A stretch of 58,920 bases of DNA, filler included, from Diploschistes diacapsis (lineage: Eukaryota), in the NCBI GenBank assembly GCA_023645945.1. It is 5 parts of 5 records of this genome, joined end to end, with 100 filler letters (N's around TTAATTAATTAA, not from the genome) between each part and the next. Parts side by side here need not be neighbours in the genome. Positions count along the whole stretch, not along the records: positions 1 to 11,715 come from JALAIB010000806.1; 4 more parts are not named here. One strand, written 5' to 3'. The position numbers and the translations under genes are program-made. The notes under the pieces were generated by a model. It was given only the letters and a program-made list of their open reading frames with translations, searched no databases and was not told where the DNA came from. Shown piece after piece: positions 1-47,227 of this stretch (within the stretch, counting starts at the first letter, position 1; each line of letters begins with the position of its first letter).

Positions 1-379
1 TCAGGTCCACCGCCAGGTCCACCACCGCCAGGCCTGCCGGCGGCGGCGGCGGCGGCAGTGGTGGGGGCCGTGGGAACTTCAGACTCGTCCCGGCCCCGGC
101 CCCTGCTTCCCTTCCTCTTTCTTTTCCTCTTCCTCTTCCTCTTCCTCTTCCTCCTCCCCCTCCGCCAGCGTCCGGGGGCCACGGGGCGCTCTTTCTGGGC
201 CCCCCCGCCTTCCCACGCGTTTCGCTGCGCGCCGCGGCCGGGGCGGGTTGCGTGTGGGAGATTGTGGGCACGGCGCTGGTCGCGGCTTGGGGGGAAGGAA
301 AGGAGGAGGAGGAGGATGAGGAGGAGGATGATGACGACGTGAGGATGGGAGGACGGAGGAGGCGGATATAGAGGGGCAT
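1..379 (-). CDS. 5' end of a gene running off the window edge; possibly a Methyltransf_16-type protein methyltransferase with a low-complexity insert
   Basis: ATG at 379 in good context (AAGAAAC ATG), then 126 stop-free codons to the edge: MPLYIRLLRPP, poly-S, (GR)n, poly-P, AGLAVVDLAVDL. YIRLLRPP resembles an N-terminus I recall from fungal Methyltransf_16 proteins. Not in the ORF track because there is no stop. Confidence 0.4.
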   Translation of the reverse strand, partial: MPLYIRLLRPPILTSSSSSSSSSSSSFPSPQAATSAVPTISHTQPAPAAARSETRGKAGGPRKSAPWPPDAGGGGGGRGRGRGRGKERGREAGAGAGTSLKFPRPPPLPPPPPPAGLAVVDLAVDL

Positions 380-820
380 GTTTCTTGTGGATTTCGATAC
401 TTTTTGATTTTCCTTGTCTTTCTTGAGAGAGGGAAAGAGGGGGACAGGGGGAGAGGGGGGCCGCTTCTGCAAAGCGGAAAGGAGGGTTTGGGTTCTGGCT
501 AGCAAGTAGATTAAAATTTGAGATGGGTTTTGTTTGTTGCAACCTCTATCTGCTGCAAATCGCGTGATTCTTGAGTTTATAGACTGAAGTTTTCATATTG
601 GATGTAACGAACAGCTATTTTCAAGTACCGCAAGAAACTTTTCATGCACTAGAATAATTGCAAGCCGAAGAGGCTCCATCTCAAGCCTCCTCCCATCCTT
701 CCCGAACATCCTCCCCAGCTTCAAAAAGATCGTTAGCATCTTGCAAGATGAGTAATTTGCGCCGCTGGCCTAAAATGCATCTCTGCACTTGCTTCGAGCA
801 TTGTAGCGCACTTTTGATAC

Positions 821-2175
821 TCAGCAGTCTAGGATGGCCGACGCCCCGGGCTCGGAGCACACGTAAATCACATCATGGTTGTTGCTAAATCCGTTGAACC
901 TGGTCGCAGCGCAACGCGAGTAAGCACCCATCTCTTCAAAGTACAGCCAGTCGCCGATATCTAATAGTCGATCAAACACACATCTTTCCGTGATACGATC
1001 GATGCCATCGCATGTGGGGCCCCAGAGTGAGTACTCGACCGCATCCCGCCGAAGCTGCTGGTGACGTGCAGACAGAATTCGGGGCACAGGAGTCTGATGA
1101 TCGAAGATGACGCCCGAGAAGTTGCCATAGACGCCGTCGTTCAAATAGAGCATGTAGCTCGTGTCCGCCGTAACCGGGTTGTGTACGTCGCGGCGGGCGA
1201 TGACATTGCACGCAAGCGTATAGACGTTCGACACGAAATATCGACCGGGTTCTCCAATTATGCGAACGGAGGGCGGGAAGTGCGCCTCAAGTGCCTCATT
1301 TAGAGCGGCAGCCGCTACTTCAAAAAGTGGGCCGCACGTGAAGCCTCCTCCGATGTCGAGGGTCCTGAGGTTGTACCCAATGGCTGCAGCTTGATCGAAG
1401 ACCATACGAGAGTCACGAACGGCCTGAAGGAAGGAGTTTGGGTCAGAAGCCCCAGAGCCAACGTGGAAGCTGACACCAACGATGTTGAGGGAAAGGTCTT
1501 TGGCGAGCTTCAGAAGCCCTTCCGTGGAGCCCAAGGAGGCCCCAAACTTCAGACTCAGGCGACACAGGCTGGCGGAGTCATCGGTAAGGATGCGCAGAAA
1601 GAGCTCTGCGCCCGGAAAGAATTCCTTGACTTTGTACAATTCGTCGGCGTTGTCGAAGGTCATCTGTTTGACGCCCATCTTGGCTGCATGGCGAATGTGC
1701 GATATGGTCTTGCATGGTTGAGCATAAATGATGCGAGACGGATCAACGCCAAGCTCCAGCACGGAGTCAATCTCTGCCTTCGAAGCACAATCGAAACCGG
1801 TCCCAAGGGCGGCCAGGAGGCGAAGAATCTCCGGATCAGGGTTGCACTTGACAGCTACCGGACCAGTCAGCAACGCTCCAGCGGCAAGGGTCTGTTTCTC
1901 CAAGGCATACCATAGTGCGGCTTGACCCTCTTCAGATTCATCTTCCAGCGTAGGTGCTGACGGTAAACCTCGCCCATGTCGGCGACGAAGAAAGCCTCCT
2001 CTTCTCCAGCTTCGCAAGCATCCACATCGATGCTGCTAATCCTGCTCTTCAATGCATCGTGCACAATAGATCTTGCATTTTCTGCGCCATTGCTAATATT
2101 GTCCGGAAGATTATTACTCTTCAGAACAAATGGTGGACGATTATCGGTTGTAGTTGCAGTAAGCGACGGTGCCAT
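821..2175 (-). CDS. spe1: Ornithine decarboxylase (fold-type III PLP enzyme), 2 exons: 2175-1911, 1854-821
   Basis: A 56-nt GTATGC...GCTGAC...TAG intron (1910-1855) joins KPHY to AVKCN, restoring the PLP-lysine motif PHYAVKCN. Also GFDCAS, VGVSFHVGSG, DIGGGF, EPGRYFV, WGPTCDGID, MGAY. Confidence 0.97.
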
Positions 2176-2229
2176 GCCCTTGCTAGAAGAGCACGTAAGA
2201 GTTTTGATATCTGATACTCAAGAAGCCTG

Positions 2230-2463
2230 TTAAGGTGGCTTGAAAGTATCTCTTGCGACGCAAGCCCGACGAGATCGCCTCGACCCTTCCTCGGAAAGAG
2301 GAAGAACCACTAGGCTTGTCCTATGCGGCAGGTGGATGAGTGCGGCAACGACGGGAATCAGAAGCTCAAACACCGCGGGAGGGAAAGAGGCAACTCTGGG
2401 AGAGACAGGCAGCTGGGGGTGGAATGTCGTTGAGGGTATCTCGGTGTGGGCGTGTCGAGTGAT
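2230..2463 (-). promoter_or_regulatory. Non-AUG (AUC-initiated) upstream ORF, 77 aa ending FKPP-stop, in the ODC 5' leader (uCC-like)
   Basis: TTCAAA-ATC at 2463 opens 77 codons ending AAG CCA CCT TAA (2230), 54 nt before the ODC ATG. No ATG between the TATA box and the ODC start. Matches the described non-AUG uORFs of ODC-family mRNAs. Confidence 0.75.
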
Positions 2464-2555
2464 TTTGAAGGGAGAACAGTGTCAGGGCTTGGAAAGCCGT
2501 TTTGAAAGCTGGGGCAAAAGCTCTACAAGAGGATGAAGAGCAGCAGAAACCGGTC

Positions 2556-2603
2556 TTTTATAGCAGCTGAATAGGCGAACCCTATAACACACACGGTGAG
2601 TCA
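2556..2603 (-). promoter_or_regulatory. ODC core promoter: TATAAAA (2562-2556) and a Gcn4/CpcA-type TGACTCA (2603-2597)
   Basis: Exact motifs on the ODC sense strand, 34 nt apart, upstream of the leader. Confidence 0.55.
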
Positions 2604-2761
2604 ATGGGAAGCAGAAAGGCACAGCAGCACGTACACCACACCGTCTCTCTCAGGCGGCGCGTAGGTTATTTTTTCAAGAGTGTTGATGGTGGGGGAAGGG
2701 GGGGGCTGTGATGTGAGCAAGAGCGAGTCGGCAGGGCACGTCCACATATATATGTATGTGC

Positions 2762-2797
2762 AGTAGAAAGGTAGTAGAAAGGTAGTAGAAAGGTAGT
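2762..2797. repeat. (AGTAGAAAGGT)x3 tandem repeat
   Basis: Read directly. Confidence 0.85.
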
Positions 2798-3427
2798 CTA
2801 GGTAATGAGCAAGTTTCCGAGGCAGGTTTATAAGGCAAGAAGTTGGTGCTTCTGCTCCTGGTGGTGCGGGATTTATGGGTTTTTTCGTTTTTTCCTCTCT
2901 CTCTCTATGTAAATATGTAAATATGCGGACGAGTTATAGTATAGTAGCGAGGGGCAGCAACAAGGCTGACCGGGCAGGGGCGAAGAAGAACTTTCACTTT
3001 TCCACCTTCACCGCCACCCCTTTGATTCATCATCCACCATCATCATAATCCATCATCCACCATCCACCATCCACCATCATATCCACCAGACAGTCCCGCT
3101 GTAGACCGCTGTCCGTCCGTTCACGATTACTCATACACAAACAACATTATAGTGTGGGTGCAGGAGACGTCCTCGGCTTCATTATATCTATACCTATACC
3201 AAATACATTATCCGCGCCGAACTCGTCATCTTGTTCTCATTTATCATAATTCGTGCGCCCATTGCGCCCTCTCAAGAAACTGCAGTCGCCTTGATCGCTA
3301 GCAGCGAAATTAGTTCCGAGCCACCAAGGTAGAAGACGCCGAATCCCCCTCGCACCTGGACCCACAACGCCAACCCACGCCATGCAAAAAGCCACCACAT
3401 CGTATCTTCAAAGTGCTTGGAACACCC

Positions 3428-4762
3428 CTAAAAACCCTTTGTGTCTGGTGCCGGAGCCTCGGAAATTGTAGCCGGCGGAATAAGTGACTGCTCATGTGTG
3501 CCATCTGTATGTGACGAGCGTCCCGCGGCTAGCGGAGATGCCTCAAGCCCACGCTCATAGGCTACTTGCTGCGCCTCGTCCCGCTTGCGCTGCACCTCGG
3601 CTTCCTCCTCTTGTCGAACCTGCTCCTCCTCGTGATGGAGCTCCGCCATGCTTGGCAGGCCATGATCTTCATGCAGTTCCACTGACGGATCCCCAACGGC
3701 AGCGTCATCGCTTTCCGTACGGGTAACCACCGATGAAGGTGACTTTTCGCTTGATGCAACCGACTCTGTAACCGACATTGAAGGGGCCACCACTGAGCCA
3801 TGCTTTCTGGAGCTTCGGCCTGTGTGCGTTCTGGATAATGACGTTCGCCTCGTCCTCGAATGAGCCGTAGACTTTGACATCGACCGTGAAGACTTGGCTT
3901 TTCCCATCATGCCACTGCTGAAGTCGTCATTCGATGTGCTGCGCCTCGAGAGTGTTATGGCGAACTCGTCATCTAGCGGCACGGCGTCTGCGGCTTCGTC
4001 TTCACTTGGGAAGAGATCTCCCCGTGAGCTCAAGCTATTCATCGTACTCTGAGAGTTCACCGTTGCGCTTCGATTCCGTCTATGTCTCCTTTCACCGCCT
4101 TGCCTCTGATGTCTGCTTCTCTCATCCTCAGACTCTTCCAGCAACGCCGACGCCTCGGCATTATCCTCATCCTTTCTCGACTCGCCTGCCACGTCTTGCA
4201 AGCCTGCCGCGGAAGGTTTGTATCGTACGCCTCTGTTACCCAAATTCCATGGTAACCGCTCAAGAAATCCAAACATCGATGAGCCTGGAAGCAGTGTAGG
4301 ATCGCCCTCTCCACCTTTGCCCACGCCTGTACTCCTCCTCCTCCTTCTGCCTGCCCCTGTGCCATAGTTCATCTGATTCTGCCGTTTGGGCTGTTCGGCT
4401 CCGCTGCCGCCCGCCAGGAGCCGGTCTAGCTCGTCTGCCCCCCATCCGCTCAGTAGACCCGATTGTTCGGTTTCATCCTCTTCATCATCCCAGTCGGCAG
4501 TATAAAAGTCGAAGATGAACTCTGGCCTTCCTCGGTTGGCTGCTAACTGATTCCGCCGCTGCCGGGCGCGCACACGATCGCGACGGGCGCCGATACATGG
4601 ATAACAGGCGGACTCAAGACAGGAAGAGAAAGAATTGAGGCAGGGGGTAATATACCGTGCTGAGAAGGTGTAGAGTGAGGCTTGGGTATTCAATTGGGCG
4701 CTCTCAAAGGTGGAGGAGATGCGATCAAGGGTTTGCCGCACACGAGGGTCGTGGCGATTCAT
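3428..4762 (-). CDS. Conserved fungal hypothetical protein, 444 aa, largely disordered
   Basis: Long intronless ORF. MNRHDPRVRQTL N-terminus, FDFY..DW and GWG.DELDRLLAG blocks are typical of a Pezizomycotina hypothetical family. Confidence 0.85.
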   Translation of the reverse strand: MNRHDPRVRQTLDRISSTFESAQLNTQASLYTFSARYITPCLNSFSSCLESACYPCIGARRDRVRARQRRNQLAANRGRPEFIFDFYTADWDDEEDETEQSGLLSGWGADELDRLLAGGSGAEQPKRQNQMNYGTGAGRRRRRSTGVGKGGEGDPTLLPGSSMFGFLERLPWNLGNRGVRYKPSAAGLQDVAGESRKDEDNAEASALLEESEDERSRHQRQGGERRHRRNRSATVNSQSTMNSLSSRGDLFPSEDEAADAVPLDDEFAITLSRRSTSNDDFSSGMMGKAKSSRSMSKSTAHSRTRRTSLSRTHTGRSSRKHGSVVAPSMSVTESVASSEKSPSSVVTRTESDDAAVGDPSVELHEDHGLPSMAELHHEEEQVRQEEEAEVQRKRDEAQQVAYERGLEASPLAAGRSSHTDGTHEQSLIPPATISEAPAPDTKGF

Positions 4763-5569
4763 TATAGTATCCGGAAAGGGAAAATGTAGCTACTTCCGCT
4801 TTCCAAGTCAAGACGGTTTAATGTTGAGAGGTATTGCGTTTCTTCCCGATCCAGCTTGAGTTGTGGAAGGCCTTTTGGGCGAGGATTGAGAGGCGGCGCA
4901 AGACTTGGGTCTAGATGCGCAAGGCTGACAATGCAAGGAATAGCTCCGCATCACAAGAGCATTGCTCGCAACCTCGCCGCCATTTCGGCTTGGAGAAGGA
5001 TCGAAAACTGAGCGTTCCAATGTCTGGCATTGAATGTACAATGAATGAATTTGTGTAGAATGTGGGTAGGTTCAATGTCGACACCAAATAAAGGTGCTGG
5101 TTATTCTGACCGTTATCTTGGCAGTATGCAAACTCGGGTGTTAGACTTAGTAGTGGCGTAGTTAGCGGCGGGAGCAGCAAGCAAGATAAAATATATTTTG
5201 GGATTGCTCGTTTAGCAACACGATATAAGCAGCATTTAAAGCAGGATTTTTGGGTTAAAAAGAAGCGCAATATAAATCCTAAAGAATTATATAATGTTTA
5301 CTTTGGGTGGAGGGTATGTCAATTTCAATAGATACACATACAAATAAATCTTAGTAGTTCTGTATTGTCGAGGCACCTGAGCTTAGCGTCTGTAATCTAT
5401 TAAAATTAACAGTCATAATAACCGCTGCCCTAAATGGGCCGTAACAGCCATTTTCAAGAGCTACTGCGGCATTTAACGCAGCTTCTCTTTTGATTGGTTC
5501 GCTTATCTTAAGAAATGCTTTAGATAATTTAGGGCTATTCAAGTCTTTCTATCAACCTATATATATATA

Positions 5570-5679
5570 CAGTACTAGGCCAAAAGGAGTTAGGTACACC
5601 ATAAGCGGCAGTAAAGAGACAGTCAACTCTTTACTGCCGCTTATGGTGTACCTAACTAACTACTTTTGGCACCTGACTG
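5570..5679. mobile_element. 110-bp foldback MITE, Tc1/impala-like termini (TA|CAGT...ACTG|TA)
   Basis: Perfect 31-bp inverted repeat (5588-5618 / 5627-5657, 8-nt loop), extended by GCCAAAAG and terminal CAGT, flanked by TA-rich sequence. Confidence 0.75.
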
Positions 5680-6422
5680 TACATATATATAATACATCAT
5701 CCCCTGACATTCTCTTTATCCAATCCCAACTTTAATCCTCAAGACCATAGGGTACTCCTGAACATAACTATTCAGCAAACCACTATGGGTATTTATCAGC
5801 AAGTTGACCTTGTCCACAAGGTGCACTAAGTGTGAACCGCGACTTCTTTGTATCTGCCTCTCCAAAAGGGCGTGCATGCCTTTACACTCCTCCCTAAGAC
5901 TATGCTCTCTCGACGAAGTTGGCTTGCCAAAATCGAAGCAGGAGCAGCCTAACTACTTGCCCTCGTTGATGGACGATATGCTTCGGTTACTAACTCAACA
6001 TGATGCTTTTCGTCCCTGGCAGTATGGGTCCGATCCAGATAAGGTAAGTGGGCCGAGCTTCTCTCTTTGGATTTTCACCTGAGAGCAGGTGATTTTGCTC
6101 CGTTTCTATTTGTGGATGGGTTAGCTCTTGCATTCTTCGATATTAGAGTATAATAATAAAAAGCTTACCGCATCTCTTGAGTCGAGCATCAATGTACATC
6201 CAGTCTATGAATCAATTGAATGATTGGCACTCCATCTTGAGAAGCACCTTTCACACTACGAAACTCAAAGAGCCCTTTATTCTCTCTCAAAACTTCTTTC
6301 ATGCTGGACTGGTTCCATTTTTAATTTCGTTCAACTCTTGGTTCACATCCTTTTTCGCGAGCATCTCCTCCAGCCGAGCTTGCACTGTACCACTTTAGAT
6401 CTTGGTCGCATTGGCATTCGAC

Positions 6423-6941
6423 ATGCTTCTCGCCATCCTTCTCTGTCTAGCAGTTCTCCCACGGTCAATTCTCGCCGCGCCAATTAGCCTCGATGAGCGC
6501 CAGACTTCTCTGCTGGGAACGTTGACCGTCCAGAGCAGCCGCCAAGCGAACATTTACTTGCAGGTCGTTACGCAGCAGAATGGTCCTATGGAAATCATCG
6601 CACCCATGCAGGCATGGAGTCGGCAGTTTGAGGTTCTTCCGCTTGGTGGTGGTGGAGTGGCGGTGAAAATGCGCAGCAGTCCAGATCCAGCCATTGAACC
6701 TCTCCAAATGGAATACACCGTCGACCCTGGAATGAGCAAGGTGTTTTACGACGTGAGTACTATTGACGGAACTGGTGGATTCCCTCCAAACTGGACTTTG
6801 ACACCAGCACAAGTTTCCGACCCCGCCAACCCTACGTGCGTCGTCGTTGACATATCCGACGATTACTACGATGCCGGCGAAGGCAACGATGCTACTATGA
6901 GCTGTCACCTGAGCAACAACTTAACGCTTGTGCTGTATTGA
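6423..6941 (+). CDS. Small secreted protein (172 aa), Bys1/thaumatin-like
   Basis: Signal peptide MLLAILLCLAVLPRSILAAP, a pro-region ending ER, the QMEYT...VFYDVSTIDG motif, and a C-terminal DATMSC...NLTLVL with 2 mature Cys. Confidence 0.75.
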   Translation: MLLAILLCLAVLPRSILAAPISLDERQTSLLGTLTVQSSRQANIYLQVVTQQNGPMEIIAPMQAWSRQFEVLPLGGGGVAVKMRSSPDPAIEPLQMEYTVDPGMSKVFYDVSTIDGTGGFPPNWTLTPAQVSDPANPTCVVVDISDDYYDAGEGNDATMSCHLSNNLTLVLY

Positions 6942-8069
6942 GTTGTCAACAACGCTAGTCACCACATATCTGTGGCACCGTTTAATTCTAGACCATTTTT
7001 GGTGAGAGGATTTTTCGCGGCCGTTCATCTCTATCAGACGCCATATTCGCTTTTTGGACTGGGAACTTTCCCGGCTTCGACTATCATCGCTCTTTTCATG
7101 TGATATCTATCCTTGCAGCTGCTGCCATCCATAACCATATGCCGGCCGCTTTGTGAGATGATGTCAGACGCTCTTTGATGATGTATAACACGATATTGAC
7201 GACTGACGCGATACGGTATACGCTCCGGTCTGCCGATGGGCTCAAGCCAATCCGCTAATGCACACAGATTTTAAATGAAACGTCACTCGTTACTAGTGAT
7301 AGGGTGGCTGTTACGAGACCCCGAATCGGAAAGGAGGTGGTGTCCTTACTAGATCTTATCAACTGATTGCCTTCTCTTGGGAATGTTAGCGTCCATTACA
7401 GAAGGGGCCTCCTCATGCGATTATCGACTTTTAAGCTGGGGTTCAAAGGTGGTTTCCACTGTTGTACGTATGCCATGTCACACACGGATCAGAGGTTACG
7501 GCTCACAGCTTGGGGTCCTGAGCCGTTATATGGCTAGCGTGCAGTTACAGAACTATTCTACAACGTGCCACACTATCCTCGACAGTCATAATCATTCGTA
7601 TTTGGTCGCCCAAACTCTGGTAGATCTATTGGTGGATCCAGGAGGATACGTCTTTGCATGTTCATGCACTCGCAAGCTCTTAGACCGGCTTCATTAGCTG
7701 ACAATCACAATACTTGAACTGCAATACTATCTGCAAATAGTCTCGTGCTTTGAATTCGTAGCTATAGCGACAAGATACACATATACCAGTAGTCATTCGT
7801 TCATGAGCAACGTCTAAATCCGTACAAGTCTCAACAGGCATCAAATGTTCCGTCATTCTCCCTGGAGCTGCCTTTGTCAAGTCAATAGAGCTACATGGAC
7901 AACCAAGGACTATCGTCCAGTGTCCATAAGGCCAGCGGCGTGTGTCTTCCAGCACCAGAATCCCGTCCACGCCGTCTTTGATTCGAAGCTCCACAGCAAC
8001 AGCGGCCAGCAACCGGCTTGACAGATCTCGCCAATCATTCCTTCATAACCTCTGTCCCCACGTCGAAGT

Positions 8070-8442
8070 TCACGGACCATCCTTCGCGACGTCAGGAAAC
8101 TCGTTGGGGTCGCTCTTGTACTTGTCCCTGAGGAACTCTTGGATCTTCTCCGGGTGAGCTTCCCGAACGTCCGACTTGGAGGGGGCACTGCCGGAGCCGG
8201 TGCCGCTTTGATCGTGCGAGGACGTGGAATCCTGCCCGGTATCTGTTCCTTGGAGATAGCGCACTCCTGTCGGCTGCTGCATTAGTGTGCTGCTATCACG
8301 TTGTGGGACGCCCGTAGCAAAAGACGTCGGGTGTACCTGTGCTGACTACGTCGCCGAGGGCGCCCCCTTGCTGGCCCTCGCTCGAGCCTGAAGTGGTCGC
8401 GCTGGATATGATGGAGTTGGCGGTGTCTTTCACGGAGTCCAT
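8070..8442 (-). CDS. Small hydrophilic protein, 100 aa, 2 exons: 8442-8337, 8266-8070
   Basis: GTACAC...CTAAT...ACAG intron (8336-8267) gives an exact 303-nt CDS: MDSVKDTANSIISSATT...EKIQEFLRDKYKSDPNEFPDVAKDGP. Confidence 0.7.
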
Positions 8443-8967
8443 CGTTACCCAAGGCTGGTGCGAAGAATCGTGATCGGCGGAAGGAAGTGGATAATTACAC
8501 AGAATGCAGATTTATAATTGATATTGGGCAAAAACAAATTGTGCCTGCATTATATTTTATTCTATTCTACGTTGCCTTCATTGGTGATTATATGTAACAC
8601 ATTAATGTACTATAGAAAGTATAAGAGAGAGGGGATATAACACCACGTCAGTAGGCAGTTACCTTGTCTCAGTATATTTAATATAATATTATAATATGAT
8701 ATTGCTGATCACTAATAATAGCAATATAAGGAAACTAGCTCGCAGCTCTAATTAACTGATTGGTTATGTAGCTGACCAATTTATGGGAGGCGACTCCTCG
8801 GAAGTCCCTTGCCCTTTTTGGATATCAACATACTAAATGAGCCCACGTCTGATGTTTCCTCGCTTTCAGCTCAGCTCGCCCTCGTTCATCCATCGAAGAC
8901 GACGATACGAAAGGCCAGATCTTGAATACTCCAGTCTCCCTTTTCCCAAGCCCACACCTGCACAAAG

Positions 8968-11090
8968 ATGACCCTATCGCTCAGCAAGCGGCATCAAGCG
9001 CGCAATGAAAAGGCCTTACAGGAACTTATAAGTGATGTGCCAGGAAATGAACGTTGCGCAGATTGCCAGTTGCGCAATCCAGGTAAGATTGTCGATTCTT
9101 ATCACAGTGTTAGCCTCTAACAAGTCGTACAGGATGGGCTAGCTGGAGCGTGAGTGCACTCGTTTGGACGGAGAATCACTGAGCTGATTCAAAAGCAGCT
9201 AGGAATATTCTTATGCATGCGATGCGCCGCGTTTCATCGAAAATTGGGTACACATATTTCAAAAGTAAAGTCTTTGAGCATGGATAGCTGGTCGAACGAT
9301 CAAGTCGAGGCAAATATACCAATCACCTCTTTTGGTTGTACATTGACTTATTTGCGTTGCAGAACATGAAGAAGATGGGCAATACGAAATCAAACCTATA
9401 TTTTAACCCGAATGGTATAAAACCCTCAATACCGCTTGATGTCGACGAGGCCGACCCCGCAATGGAGCGCTTCATCAGGCAAAAGTACGAAAAAAAGGCC
9501 TACATGGCAGACGCCCCGCCGAAACTGCCCATAGAACCGATGCATGCCGAGAGTACAGGAAGCTCAGGCGATTACCCACCACCGCCTCCTCCAAAGCATG
9601 GACGTCGCTTCGGTTTTGGCCTTCGGTCTTCATCATCCGCCCTTGTTTTGGGCAGAAGCCAGGGGCCAAGAGAAAATTCACGAAAGGAAACAGATATAAC
9701 TTCCATACAAGTCAAGAAATCCTCCAACAAAGTCATCGGGGCAAGCATTGGCGTTACAGAGAGCGAGCAAGGCTTGGGGTGGAAATTGCTTCAACTGAAA
9801 GAGATGGGTTTCCAGGACGAGCAAAAGAATTCCAATATTTTGAAAGGCCTTGACGGAGATTTAGAACGGACAGTTGAGTCCTTGGTCAGATTGGGTGAGG
9901 GTACCAGGCCTGGTTCCATAAGGACACCAGCCTCATCCGAGTTTCCTGGTCGCCAACGGCCGCTCAGCCCACGCTTCACAGCCGGAGCAAGAGTAGTATC
10001 GGCACAAAACGCTTCTTATATTCCACATCCCAGCGCACCAGCCTCATCTTCGTCGAATAACCCATTTGACGTACTTGGGTCAGCAGCAAACCCTCAACAA
10101 TCCATTGAGTCTATATTTTCAAACATGAATGTCTCAACACAGCACACTCCGCAATCAACGCAAACATTGTTCCCACATGCTACTGGAGGCCACGCACGCA
10201 ATCCAATGCAGCAGACACAGATGGAGTCACAACATCCAATGCCACCACTAGAACCGCAAAGTTCCCAGCAGTTTCCACACCATACAAACCCGTACGCTCA
10301 ACAGCAGCAAACTAACAGTCCCTTTCTCCTATCACCGCAGCAAAATAACTTCATACAATCACCTACAAATCCATTTTCTTTGCGCCAATCGAACACTTCT
10401 CTACAAACCCCTTTCGACTACCAGCAAAATCCGAATAACCAAGTCCTTTTGCCATCGCAGGGACAATTCACTTCGCAGCAATTCTCGCAGCAATTCTCGC
10501 AGCAACTCCCACAGCAGCAGCAGCAGACACAGTCTTGGATGCAGCCTTCACAACTTGTCCAGCAGCAGGAGCATCTGCAATCTCCATACCAGCTCATAAG
10601 TCCGCCTCCTTTCCCACCAACTGCCCCACAGTCGTTCTATGCACCGCAATCTCCTTACGGACCTTTAAGCCCTTTGAACCTACAAAGCCCATATCAACAG
10701 CAGATGCCGCCGCTCAGCGCCCAGTCTACCGGAAGAATTGACAATGCTCGTATACTTGCGCTTTACAACCACCCTCAGTTAGCGCCCGCACCACCGGCTC
10801 CCAGCTCTCAAATATCCGATCAGACTAGCACAGACCTCGCGCCACAATCTCAAGCCGCGCAGACGCTTCAAGGCGCAAATGGTCCTCTACCGCGAAGCCC
10901 TCAGCGGAGCGTCACAATGCCAGTTTCTGCGTCTTGGAGTAAGAACCCATTCCTACCCGCAGGTGGCCCGCAGCAGCCCTCAGCAACTACCCGACCTGCT
11001 GGGCCATGGCCTGCGAGCCGAGAGAGCAGCGATAGCGGAAGGCAGAGTCCTGATGCGTTTGCAAGTTTGAGCGCAAGATATGTACGATGA
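8968..11090 (+). CDS. ArfGAP zinc-finger protein with UBA-like domain and Q/P-rich NPF-containing tail (Gts1-like); 4 exons
   Basis: [48 protein letters not shown] across 3 introns, FIRQKYE, UBA-like LKEMGF, several NPF motifs. Confidence 0.9.
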
Positions 11091-11612
11091 TCGCCATCAA
11101 GGGTTCACCCCCCTCTGATATACTTTGGATAGATATCAATGTAAGATACGAACAGACTGTATGGAATGCACTGAAGGTTGGTGTTCCGCTGTTGGGGCTT
11201 GGTAGCAATGCTCGCTTCAAAACTCAGGATATCCATACTTGCTGTGTATGATAACTCAATGGCCCACAATCTCAAAGAGAGAGTTTCTATATCAAACTCC
11301 AAGTTGCAGAAGAGCCGCTAAGCATGTAAAGTTTATTGGTGGCTCTGCCGTTGTTCTTGTCGTACTGTAGCGTCGCAACGGGGGGTTTGATGACTTCTTA
11401 TGATTGGACCTCGGCAACGGCAACAAAAGAAACATTGAGCTCTTCTCCAGCAGCCTCTAGGGAAACATCCTCGCACGACCCAAAGCCCCTTTCAAACCCT
11501 ACTTTTCCAGCTTGATTCCTTCCTTGTAACATACGGGAAAGCCCCTTCCAACTCTACTCTCCATTCAACCCAAAGAATCGTAAAATCAACAAACCCCCGC
11601 AATCCCCCCACA

Positions 11613-11715
11613 ATGTCCACCGCCACGCCCTCCGCCGCCACAGGCAGCGGGCCCATCACCACCCCGTTGACCAAGCTGCTCAATATCCAACACCCCATTC
11701 TCCTCGCCGGCATGG
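11613..11715 (+). CDS. N-terminus of nitronate monooxygenase (2-nitropropane dioxygenase family), truncated by contig end
   Basis: CACAATG context; MSTATPSAATGSGPITTPLTKLLNIQHPILLAGM matches the family start. Confidence 0.75.
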
Positions 11716-11815
11716 NNNNNNNNNNNNNNNNNNNNNNNNNNNNNNNNNNNNNNNNNNNNTTAATTAATTAANNNNNNNNNNNNNNNNNNNNNNNNNNNNN
11801 NNNNNNNNNNNNNNN
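11716..11815. other. Artificial contig spacer N44-TTAATTAATTAA-N44
   Basis: Identical 100-nt spacer with stops in all six frames. Confidence 0.98.
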
Positions 11816-23527: not shown

Positions 23528-23627
23528 NNNNNNNNNNNNNNNNNNNNNNNNNNNNNNNNNNNNNNNNNNNNTTAATTAATTAANNNNNNNNNNNNNNNNN
23601 NNNNNNNNNNNNNNNNNNNNNNNNNNN
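23528..23627. other. Artificial contig spacer
   Basis: N44-TTAATTAATTAA-N44. Confidence 0.98.
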
Positions 23628-35331: not shown

Positions 35332-35431
35332 NNNNNNNNNNNNNNNNNNNNNNNNNNNNNNNNNNNNNNNNNNNNTTAATTAATTAANNNNNNNNNNNNN
35401 NNNNNNNNNNNNNNNNNNNNNNNNNNNNNNN
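35332..35431. other. Artificial contig spacer (preceded by a (TA)n contig end)
   Basis: N44-TTAATTAATTAA-N44. Confidence 0.98.
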
Positions 35432-47127: not shown

Positions 47128-47227
47128 NNNNNNNNNNNNNNNNNNNNNNNNNNNNNNNNNNNNNNNNNNNNTTAATTAATTAANNNNNNNNNNNNNNNNN
47201 NNNNNNNNNNNNNNNNNNNNNNNNNNN
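47128..47227. other. Artificial contig spacer
   Basis: N44-TTAATTAATTAA-N44. Confidence 0.98.

Follow-up and report, generated by a model that had tools for sequence, protein, structure and literature searches.

Two overlapping non-AUG upstream reading frames in the ornithine decarboxylase leader of Diploschistes diacapsis and its relatives: a candidate polyamine-sensing brake

Introduction

The window analysed here is a stretch of 58,920 nucleotides from Diploschistes diacapsis (GCA_023645945.1), made of five contigs joined by N spacers, and the first of these (C4148, 1-11715) carries on its minus strand a gene for ornithine decarboxylase (ODC) preceded by a leader that contains no ATG. This raises the question of whether such a leader encodes peptides from other start codons and whether these could adjust ODC synthesis to the polyamine supply. 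A sequence-only reading of the locus had proposed one frame of this kind, started by AUC and ending in Pro-Pro-stop.

There is a precedent in filamentous ascomycetes. The 2009 review in PMC2811004 describes for the ODC mRNAs of Pezizomycotina an upstream conserved coding region (uCC), ~100 codons long and with a pair of prolines at its C-terminus (Ivanov, Loughran and Atkins 2008, via PMC2811004), with AUU, UUG or ACG in good context as putative starts; according to that review, the fungal uCC was predicted by sequence comparison and had not been directly tested at the time. The same source gives ~30-fold repression by the leader region with the uCC in N. crassa, of which ~3-fold is translational, and which is partly relieved by polyamine depletion. 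For AZIN1, polyamines are described as inhibiting eIF5A, so that ribosomes stall at PPW and the resulting queue raises initiation at AUU, and for HOL1 the stall is one of termination at PS-stop, dependent on polyamine and eIF5A (PMC11550727, PMC8705083, bioRxiv 10.1101/2023.07.12.548609). As PMC8705083 has it, eIF5A both rescues polyproline stalls and aids termination.

Materials and methods

Relatives were sought in metagenome contigs, with ODC exon 1 as the query; of 149 confirmed stretches the best 80 were used. As the query was ODC exon 1 and not the uORF, the leaders were chosen blind to the uORF. One locus without an ATG and two with a leader of <100 nt were dropped from the 80, and the remaining 77, together with the window, gave 55 distinct Pezizomycotina-type leaders, cited below by number, none of them from a locus named as Eurotiales, Sordariomycetes, Neurospora or Aspergillus. 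Contig scans of genome and viral collections returned 1 and 8 weak non-fungal matches.

Seven of the 55 leaders were too short for the start-region alignment, which took in the 48 that extend 300 nt or more 5' of the stop. Forty-one typical leaders were selected on N..PP in the frame of a conserved ACG (uORF-A, below) and on the frame offset, and 23 representatives <80% identical were drawn from these 41. Values of pN/pS come from 16 pairs which are disjoint, yet not strictly independent because the sequences are related, and substitutions were counted by parsimony on a tree of ODC proteins whose 34 tips stand for 34 of the 41 leaders. In the null for start and stop codons the uORF-A peptide was kept and synonymously recoded in the 23 representatives; this ignores shared ancestry, and the numbers are indicative and not p-values.

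The ODC locus and its transcript

The ODC product is 432 aa long, matches PF02784 and PF00278 (Pfam) and is the sole PF02784 match found in its own genome. Its best named homologues are from lichen fungi, and a quick ML tree sets it among named Lecanoromycetes ODCs, in a clade with SH-aLRT 99. Full-length homologues begin MAPS.., and by this homology the ATG at 2175 is the true ODC start (Table 1). The genome also encodes eIF5A (PF01287, E 3.9e-14); the antizyme profile PF02100 matched nowhere in it, and the search control also matched nowhere.

Around the gene, an upstream neighbour of the same orientation (3428-4789, minus strand) is a 453-codon open frame with no Pfam match, and 5' of the leader, at ~2762-2797, an 11-nt unit, GTAGAAAGGTA, occurs three times, a near relative (X2) lacking 11 letters here. 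X2 also has an in-frame 18-nt insertion at 2095, in the variable N-terminus of ODC exon 1; among the matches listed for X2 there is no indel from 2096 to 2585 and there are at least three uCC substitutions (two third-position, one first-position).

Table 1. Features of the ODC locus in the window
Feature	Position	Strand	Remarks
N spacers	11716-11815, 23528-23627, 35332-35431, 47128-47227		only 1-11715 contiguous with the uCC/ODC locus
ODC exon 1	1911..2175	-	starts at ATG 2175
ODC intron	1855..1910	-	56 nt, GT..CTGAC..AG
ODC exon 2	821..1854	-
TATAAAA	2556..2562	-	putative TATA box
Hairpin 1, degenerate (GCTCT/AGAGC)	2520..2541	-	in window z -0.31, not significant
uORF-A	2366..2500	-	ACG-initiated, 44 codons + TGA (2368-2366); frame -1 relative to uCC
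ACG start of uORF-A	2498..2500	-	context TTCAAA ACG G (A at -3, G at +4)
N-D-I-P-P-P of uORF-A	2414..2431	-	PPP 2422-2414, predicted eIF5A-dependent elongation stall
TGA closing the uCC frame	2482..2484	-	six codons 5' of AUC
uCC (uORF-B)	2230..2463	-	AUC-initiated, 77 codons, ends FKPP-stop
AUC start of uCC	2461..2463	-	A at -3
CTG CCG CAT AG	2321..2331	-	nucleotide-invariant; LPH[RKS] in uCC frame
Hairpin 2, inside uCC	2285..2305	-	CTTCCTC / GAGGAAG, codons VLPLSEE
K-P-P-TAA	2230..2241	-	predicted termination stall

There is no ATG from 2747 to 2175, in keeping with the sequence-only reading, and the TATAAAA from which that reading had measured the leader is in place. TATAWA is found 40-100 nt 5' of the ACG in just 8 of 41 leaders, so its position is not conserved, and it falls within the intron-less contigs L023 and L037; for these reasons the supposed TATA box and transcript start are unsupported. 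The intron-less contigs themselves can be read as cDNA. L036 and L037 lack the ODC intron that is present in L035, with a leader common to all three, and L037 aligns with L035 without a gap over 482 nt, to 144 nt 5' of the ACG; the intron-less L023, L053 and L072 extend 157, 314 and 224 nt 5' of the ACG. Since L037 is intron-less, gap-free against L035 and holds all the elements described below, these would be part of the mRNA of that relative. The same gap-free alignment rules out a constitutive intron between the two frames for the species of L035 and L037, and no canonical splice donor is visible in the window.

The AUC-started Pro-Pro-stop frame

The 77-codon frame proposed earlier is present with exactly the residues quoted and its TAA; it lies on the minus strand, the strand having gone unstated, and the plus strand has stops. 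The start context TTCAAA ATC A and the in-frame TGA are likewise as described, and the ODC ATG follows the stop after 54 nt. All 55 distinct leaders have Pro-Pro-stop 39-133 nt 5' of the ATG, and the stop is TAA in every one except L057. All 23 representatives have PP-stop in the final 30-142 nt of the leader, where dinucleotide shuffles lead one to expect 0.69. On the tree, the third positions of the two Pro codons changed 9 and 11 times and positions 1-2 not at all. Residues L45, H47, P76 and P77 are invariant in the alignment, and from QLPHR to the stop pN/pS is 0.49 in this frame. Its length is 71-84 codons in relatives. The uCC is in frame with ODC in the window, and the spacing modulo 3 differs among relatives; as the stop-to-ATG distance takes all three values, the uCC is not an ODC extension, and read-through or N-terminal extension into ODC was ruled out. 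The uCC has no Pfam match, Rfam gave a single weak match below threshold (E 0.12), and its C-terminus has been called as hypothetical proteins in 8 entries (P0122-P0129), one of them from Aureobasidium melanogenum.

At the start column, 39 of 41 leaders carry a near-cognate codon (TTG 20, ATC 14, ATT 3, CTG 1, GTG 1), the exceptions being L016 and L046. By clade, it is AUC in the Lecanoromycetes-like loci (AUU in L017) and mostly UUG in the Dothideomycetes-like ones. Its first and third letters change together, so that the codon remains one mismatch from AUG, and its middle T shows no change on the tree, though in the ACG frame it falls at a third position. Of the 41 leaders, 39 have A at -3 of this start and 36 at -3 of the ACG, but none has it at -3 of the ODC AUG (G 27, C 12, T 2); a sub-optimal main start may thus be part of the leader design. 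On the alignment, AUC is a conserved start position in the Lecanoromycetes-like clade and the uCC AUC is a real start candidate despite its overlap with uORF-A. The proposal of a conserved non-AUG upstream coding region of fungal ODC has therefore held up, as the recommended alignment of related leaders returned both C-terminal conservation and a start position that is kept.

The overlapping ACG-started frame

What had been overlooked is that a stronger and better conserved start, the ACG at 2500, opens a second frame with a PPP of its own, which overlaps the first 33 codons of the uCC. In the window the ACG lies 37 nt 5' of the AUC, in the other frame, and the span from ACG to the uCC stop is 90 codons plus one base. 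The ACG was found in 43 of 48 leaders, 31-40 nt 5' of the uCC start, with the frame offset unchanged in 42 of 48 columns, and none of its three letters changes on the parsimony tree. In 21 of 39 leaders a stop interrupts the uCC frame between the ACG and the start of the uCC.

PPP is read by all 41 typical leaders, themselves selected on N..PP in this frame, and L045, L052 and L067, which have NxxPPP, bring the count to 44 of 48. Residues N24, P27, P28 and P29 are invariant (alignment A5), and the third positions of PPP changed 14, 14 and 8 times, the first and second never. Because Pro codons vary freely both at PPP and at PP-stop, it is the peptide that is kept there. The first Pro lies 72-81 nt from the ACG across leaders, and its distance to the uCC start column is 41 nt in all but two of the 41, a fixed spacing which could follow simply from dual coding. 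The frame is 28-62 codons long and its stop is always 3' of PPP. uORF-A of the window has no Pfam match; one of 23 members has a weak match to DUF6026 (E 0.017).

Which frame selection maintains

Selection changes frame at PPP. From the uCC start to PPP, pN/pS is 0.20 (0.12-0.27) in the ACG frame versus 2.14 (1.53-4.16) in the uCC frame, while 3' of PPP the uCC frame gives 0.57 and 0.49 versus 1.09 and 0.90 for the ACG frame; from ACG to the uCC start the ACG frame gives 0.48. Parsimony counts show the same switch of the variable codon position. The first 16 residues of the uCC peptide quoted earlier are therefore largely a shadow of the ACG frame.

This does not make the uCC start incidental. 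Against synonymous recoding of the 23 representatives, uCC-frame stops between the uCC start and PPP number 0 where an indicative 10.7-11.3 are expected, a near-cognate codon occupies the uCC start in 22 of 23 (6.9-10.1 expected, likewise indicative), and the uORF-A start is ACG in 22 of 23, where a Thr codon would be ACG in an indicative 4.1-4.5.

RNA structure and an invariant motif

Within the uCC, the columns of CTG CCG CAT AG show 0-2 changes each by parsimony, with the synonymous sites of CTG CCG CAT AR almost invariant (CTG/TTG in 23/23 representatives, CCG in 21/23, CAT in 23/23). Read in the ACG frame, the motif closes with a stop codon, and of the 41 uORF-A frames L078 alone extends that far. 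In the account of PMC6379720, CUG-CCG is an inhibitory codon pair in S. cerevisiae, and by this analogy our best guess is that the motif is a built-in slow site 5' of hairpin 2, which makes slow decoding here probable. A start at ATA or AGG within it was considered and dropped, as there is a C at -3 and the ATA frame has only 4 codons in the window.

Hairpin 2 is stabler than synonymous recodings in 23/23 representatives (median z -1.7), with p<0.05 in 8/23 versus 1/23 in each of two control windows. Its covariation was not above shuffles (392/500 reached the score), in an alignment that has register shifts and is without L059. Hairpin 1, degenerate in the window, takes the form GCCTTTG..CAAAGGC in relatives; 26 of 41 leaders have it, with its end 9-14 nt 5' of the ACG. 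Its covariation is modest (3/500 shuffles reached the score).

Leaders that depart from the pattern

L014, L040 and L047 are without uORF-A. In L040 and L047 a two-codon uORF, ATG-AAY-TAG, replaces it ~280-300 nt before the ODC ATG and hairpin 1 is missing; the uCC C-terminus of these two resembles P0125, the entry named Aureobasidium melanogenum. Compared with its close sister L041, L045 is missing 40 nt and with them the ACG and the UUG start, a deletion which may be an assembly variant. In L052 and L054 the ACG shares the frame of the uCC, which gives 86 codons up to PP-stop, and in L054, which lacks a second start, a FNNTPLP remnant is fused to QLPHR..PP; both are single contigs and may contain errors, and the 5' end of L054 resembles what we take to be a sequencing adapter. 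L024 has ACT in place of ACG. L067 has an intron-like insertion (GTACGC..CTGAC..TAG) within the uCC and ACG at both starts. As uORF-A is absent, has lost its ACG or has it in the uCC frame in several leaders, and as L016 and L046 are without a near-cognate uCC start, the ACG/uCC pair is not universal.

Discussion

Comparison of the leaders establishes the two frames, the conservation of their start codons, frame-specific purifying selection and the fixed spacing between them. By analogy with known systems we consider it probable that these two overlapping non-AUG uORFs act as a polyamine-sensing translational brake on ODC, in which the translation of both frames, the stalling, the dependence on eIF5A and polyamine and the repression itself would be as in AZIN1 and HOL1.

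The nearest of these systems is the Pezizomycotina ODC uCC. The frame described here shares with it the ODC leader of a filamentous ascomycete, a non-AUG start in good context, coding conservation at the C-terminus and adjacent prolines, and by these features would be one of its kind; it differs in its AUC start (AUU, UUG and ACG in the review), and it has 77 codons where the review gives ~100, a single round figure and no defining limit. Taken for this one genome, it is an ordinary further Pezizomycotina ODC uCC with an AUC start. The review's account of that uCC mentions no second, overlapping non-AUG uORF with PPP, whereas the window has one, and file 1 of its supplement shows AdoMetDC uORFs and does not contain 'ODC' (PMC2811004). 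In the literature surveyed, outside which the 2008 and 2018 primary papers (Ivanov) lie, no overlapping ACG/PPP uORF in fungal ODC is described. Since the ACG starts cited for the Pezizomycotina uCC may be the same ACG, perhaps from lineages in which it is in frame, a prior description is possible; we judge it somewhat more probable that this uORF has yet to appear in print.

The likeness to mammalian AZIN1 drawn by the sequence-only reading holds for a weak start and a proline stall upstream of an ODC homologue, and for queue-driven initiation as the proposed means. It fails in detail, as AZIN1 has PPW and PS-stop and the window neither, with PPP in one frame and [KRE]PP-stop, a predicted termination stall, in the other, and as the main ORF here is a catalytic ODC. 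The leader would thus work like an AZIN1-type uCC without being a member of that class, and PPP of uORF-A would be the closest counterpart of the PPW stall, which occurs in elongation. With the HOL1 uORF of S. cerevisiae it shares a proline beside the stop codon, there a polyamine-sensitive termination stall at PS-stop and here a predicted one at PP-stop; HOL1 is a transporter gene, and its uORF is short and AUG-started. In the plant AdoMetDC pair two conserved uORFs also overlap in an mRNA for polyamine biosynthesis, and the downstream uORF depends on its sequence and has proline as its penultimate residue. Both plant uORFs are, however, AUG-started, the overlap is one base and the first uORF is a permissive one of 2-3 residues, whereas both frames here are non-AUG, with ~100 nt in common and a PPP in the first, which sets the window pair apart from the AdoMetDC pair.

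The brake could operate as follows. At low polyamine, most scanning ribosomes would skip both weak starts and ODC would be made; some would initiate at the ACG (2500) and have to synthesise N-x-x-PPP at codons 24-29, and a smaller fraction would initiate at the AUC (2463) and have to terminate at PP-stop. Both steps would need eIF5A, which excess polyamine would inhibit. At high polyamine, an ACG-started ribosome would then stall at PPP, and queued scanning complexes would dwell over the AUC (41 nt 5' of PPP) and the ACG (78 nt 5'), increasing initiation at both. Ribosomes started at the AUC would first be slowed by CUG-CCG-CAU-AGG and hairpin 2 and would then stall at PP-stop, closing off the ODC AUG 54 nt further on; the mRNA level would probably be lowered too. 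Given that an 80S takes up ~30 nt and that the 48S footprint varies (bioRxiv 10.1101/2023.07.12.548609), 41 nt corresponds to 1-1.5 ribosomes and 78 nt to ~2.5, so that a queue behind PPP would cover both starts, in a geometry that is loose by about 15 nt. That a queue at PPP is what loads the AUC is speculative, and we put it somewhat below even odds. Slightly less probable again is a two-stage relay, of a kind absent from the literature surveyed, in which the PPP stall parks scanning complexes on the weak start 41 nt upstream and so launches the PP-stop uCC. Under such a relay one sensor would feed the next and sharpen the polyamine response, lineages would have rewired it by frame fusion (L054, L052) or by exchange for an AUG mini-uORF (L040, L047), and the second start would have been swapped among AUC, AUU, UUG, CUG, GUG and ACG.

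The shift of peptide selection from the ACG frame to the +1 frame directly after PPP would also suit a +1 frameshift, in which ribosomes start at the ACG, stall at PPP and pass into the uCC frame to make a 90-codon PP-stop fusion, the AUC being incidental. L052 and L054 fit this, having the ACG already in the uCC frame (86 codons) and, in L054, FNNTPLP fused to QLPHR..PP, as does the review's ~100-codon uCC with ACG among its putative starts (PMC2811004). The pair are nevertheless single contigs that may contain errors, and all four Pro codons are used at each PPP position, leaving no conserved slippery sequence. A frameshift, moreover, needs neither an open uCC frame 5' of PPP (0 stops against an indicative ~11) nor a near-cognate start (22 against an indicative 7-10), and we regard it as unlikely. 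We give similarly little weight to a bypass as in plant AdoMetDC, where a permissive uORF-A would ferry ribosomes past the uCC start at low polyamine for reinitiation at ODC. The overlap geometry resembles that of the tiny/small uORF pair in the review (PMC2811004), the uORF-A stop is well upstream of the ODC AUG, and L040 and L047 have their ATG-AAY-TAG mini-uORF at the uORF-A position. Against this, uORF-A has 28-62 codons and a conserved PPP, while the plant tiny uORF is AUG-started and has 2-3 residues. Long or slowly translated uORFs reinitiate poorly.

The leader might instead act mainly through mRNA level or RNA structure, by decay upon uORF termination or by hairpins that slow scanning, with no polyamine-specific queue. 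Two conserved hairpins and a nucleotide-invariant motif speak for this, as does the review's figure of just ~3-fold translational repression out of 30-fold in N. crassa (PMC2811004), but free variation of the Pro codons at PPP and PP-stop means that a peptide is kept, and selection for weak starts would be left unexplained, so that this too seems improbable. A chance open frame in a pyrimidine-rich leader, finally, has in its favour that an ATG-free stretch of 387 nt is in itself unremarkable (6.4% of shuffles produce one); it is refuted by conservation in 55/55 leaders, with the shuffle, pN/pS, recoding and parsimony results also against it, and we treat its probability as negligible.

What stands from this comparison adds AUC as a clade-wide conserved start codon. 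If uORF-A is real, half of the switch would escape reporters in which only the uCC start or its PP-stop is mutated, and one would take the N-terminal third of the uCC for a conserved peptide, though it is the shadow of another frame. The naturally fixed 41 nt from stall to weak start would then offer a direct test of how far behind a stalled ribosome the next scanning complex in the queue comes to rest.
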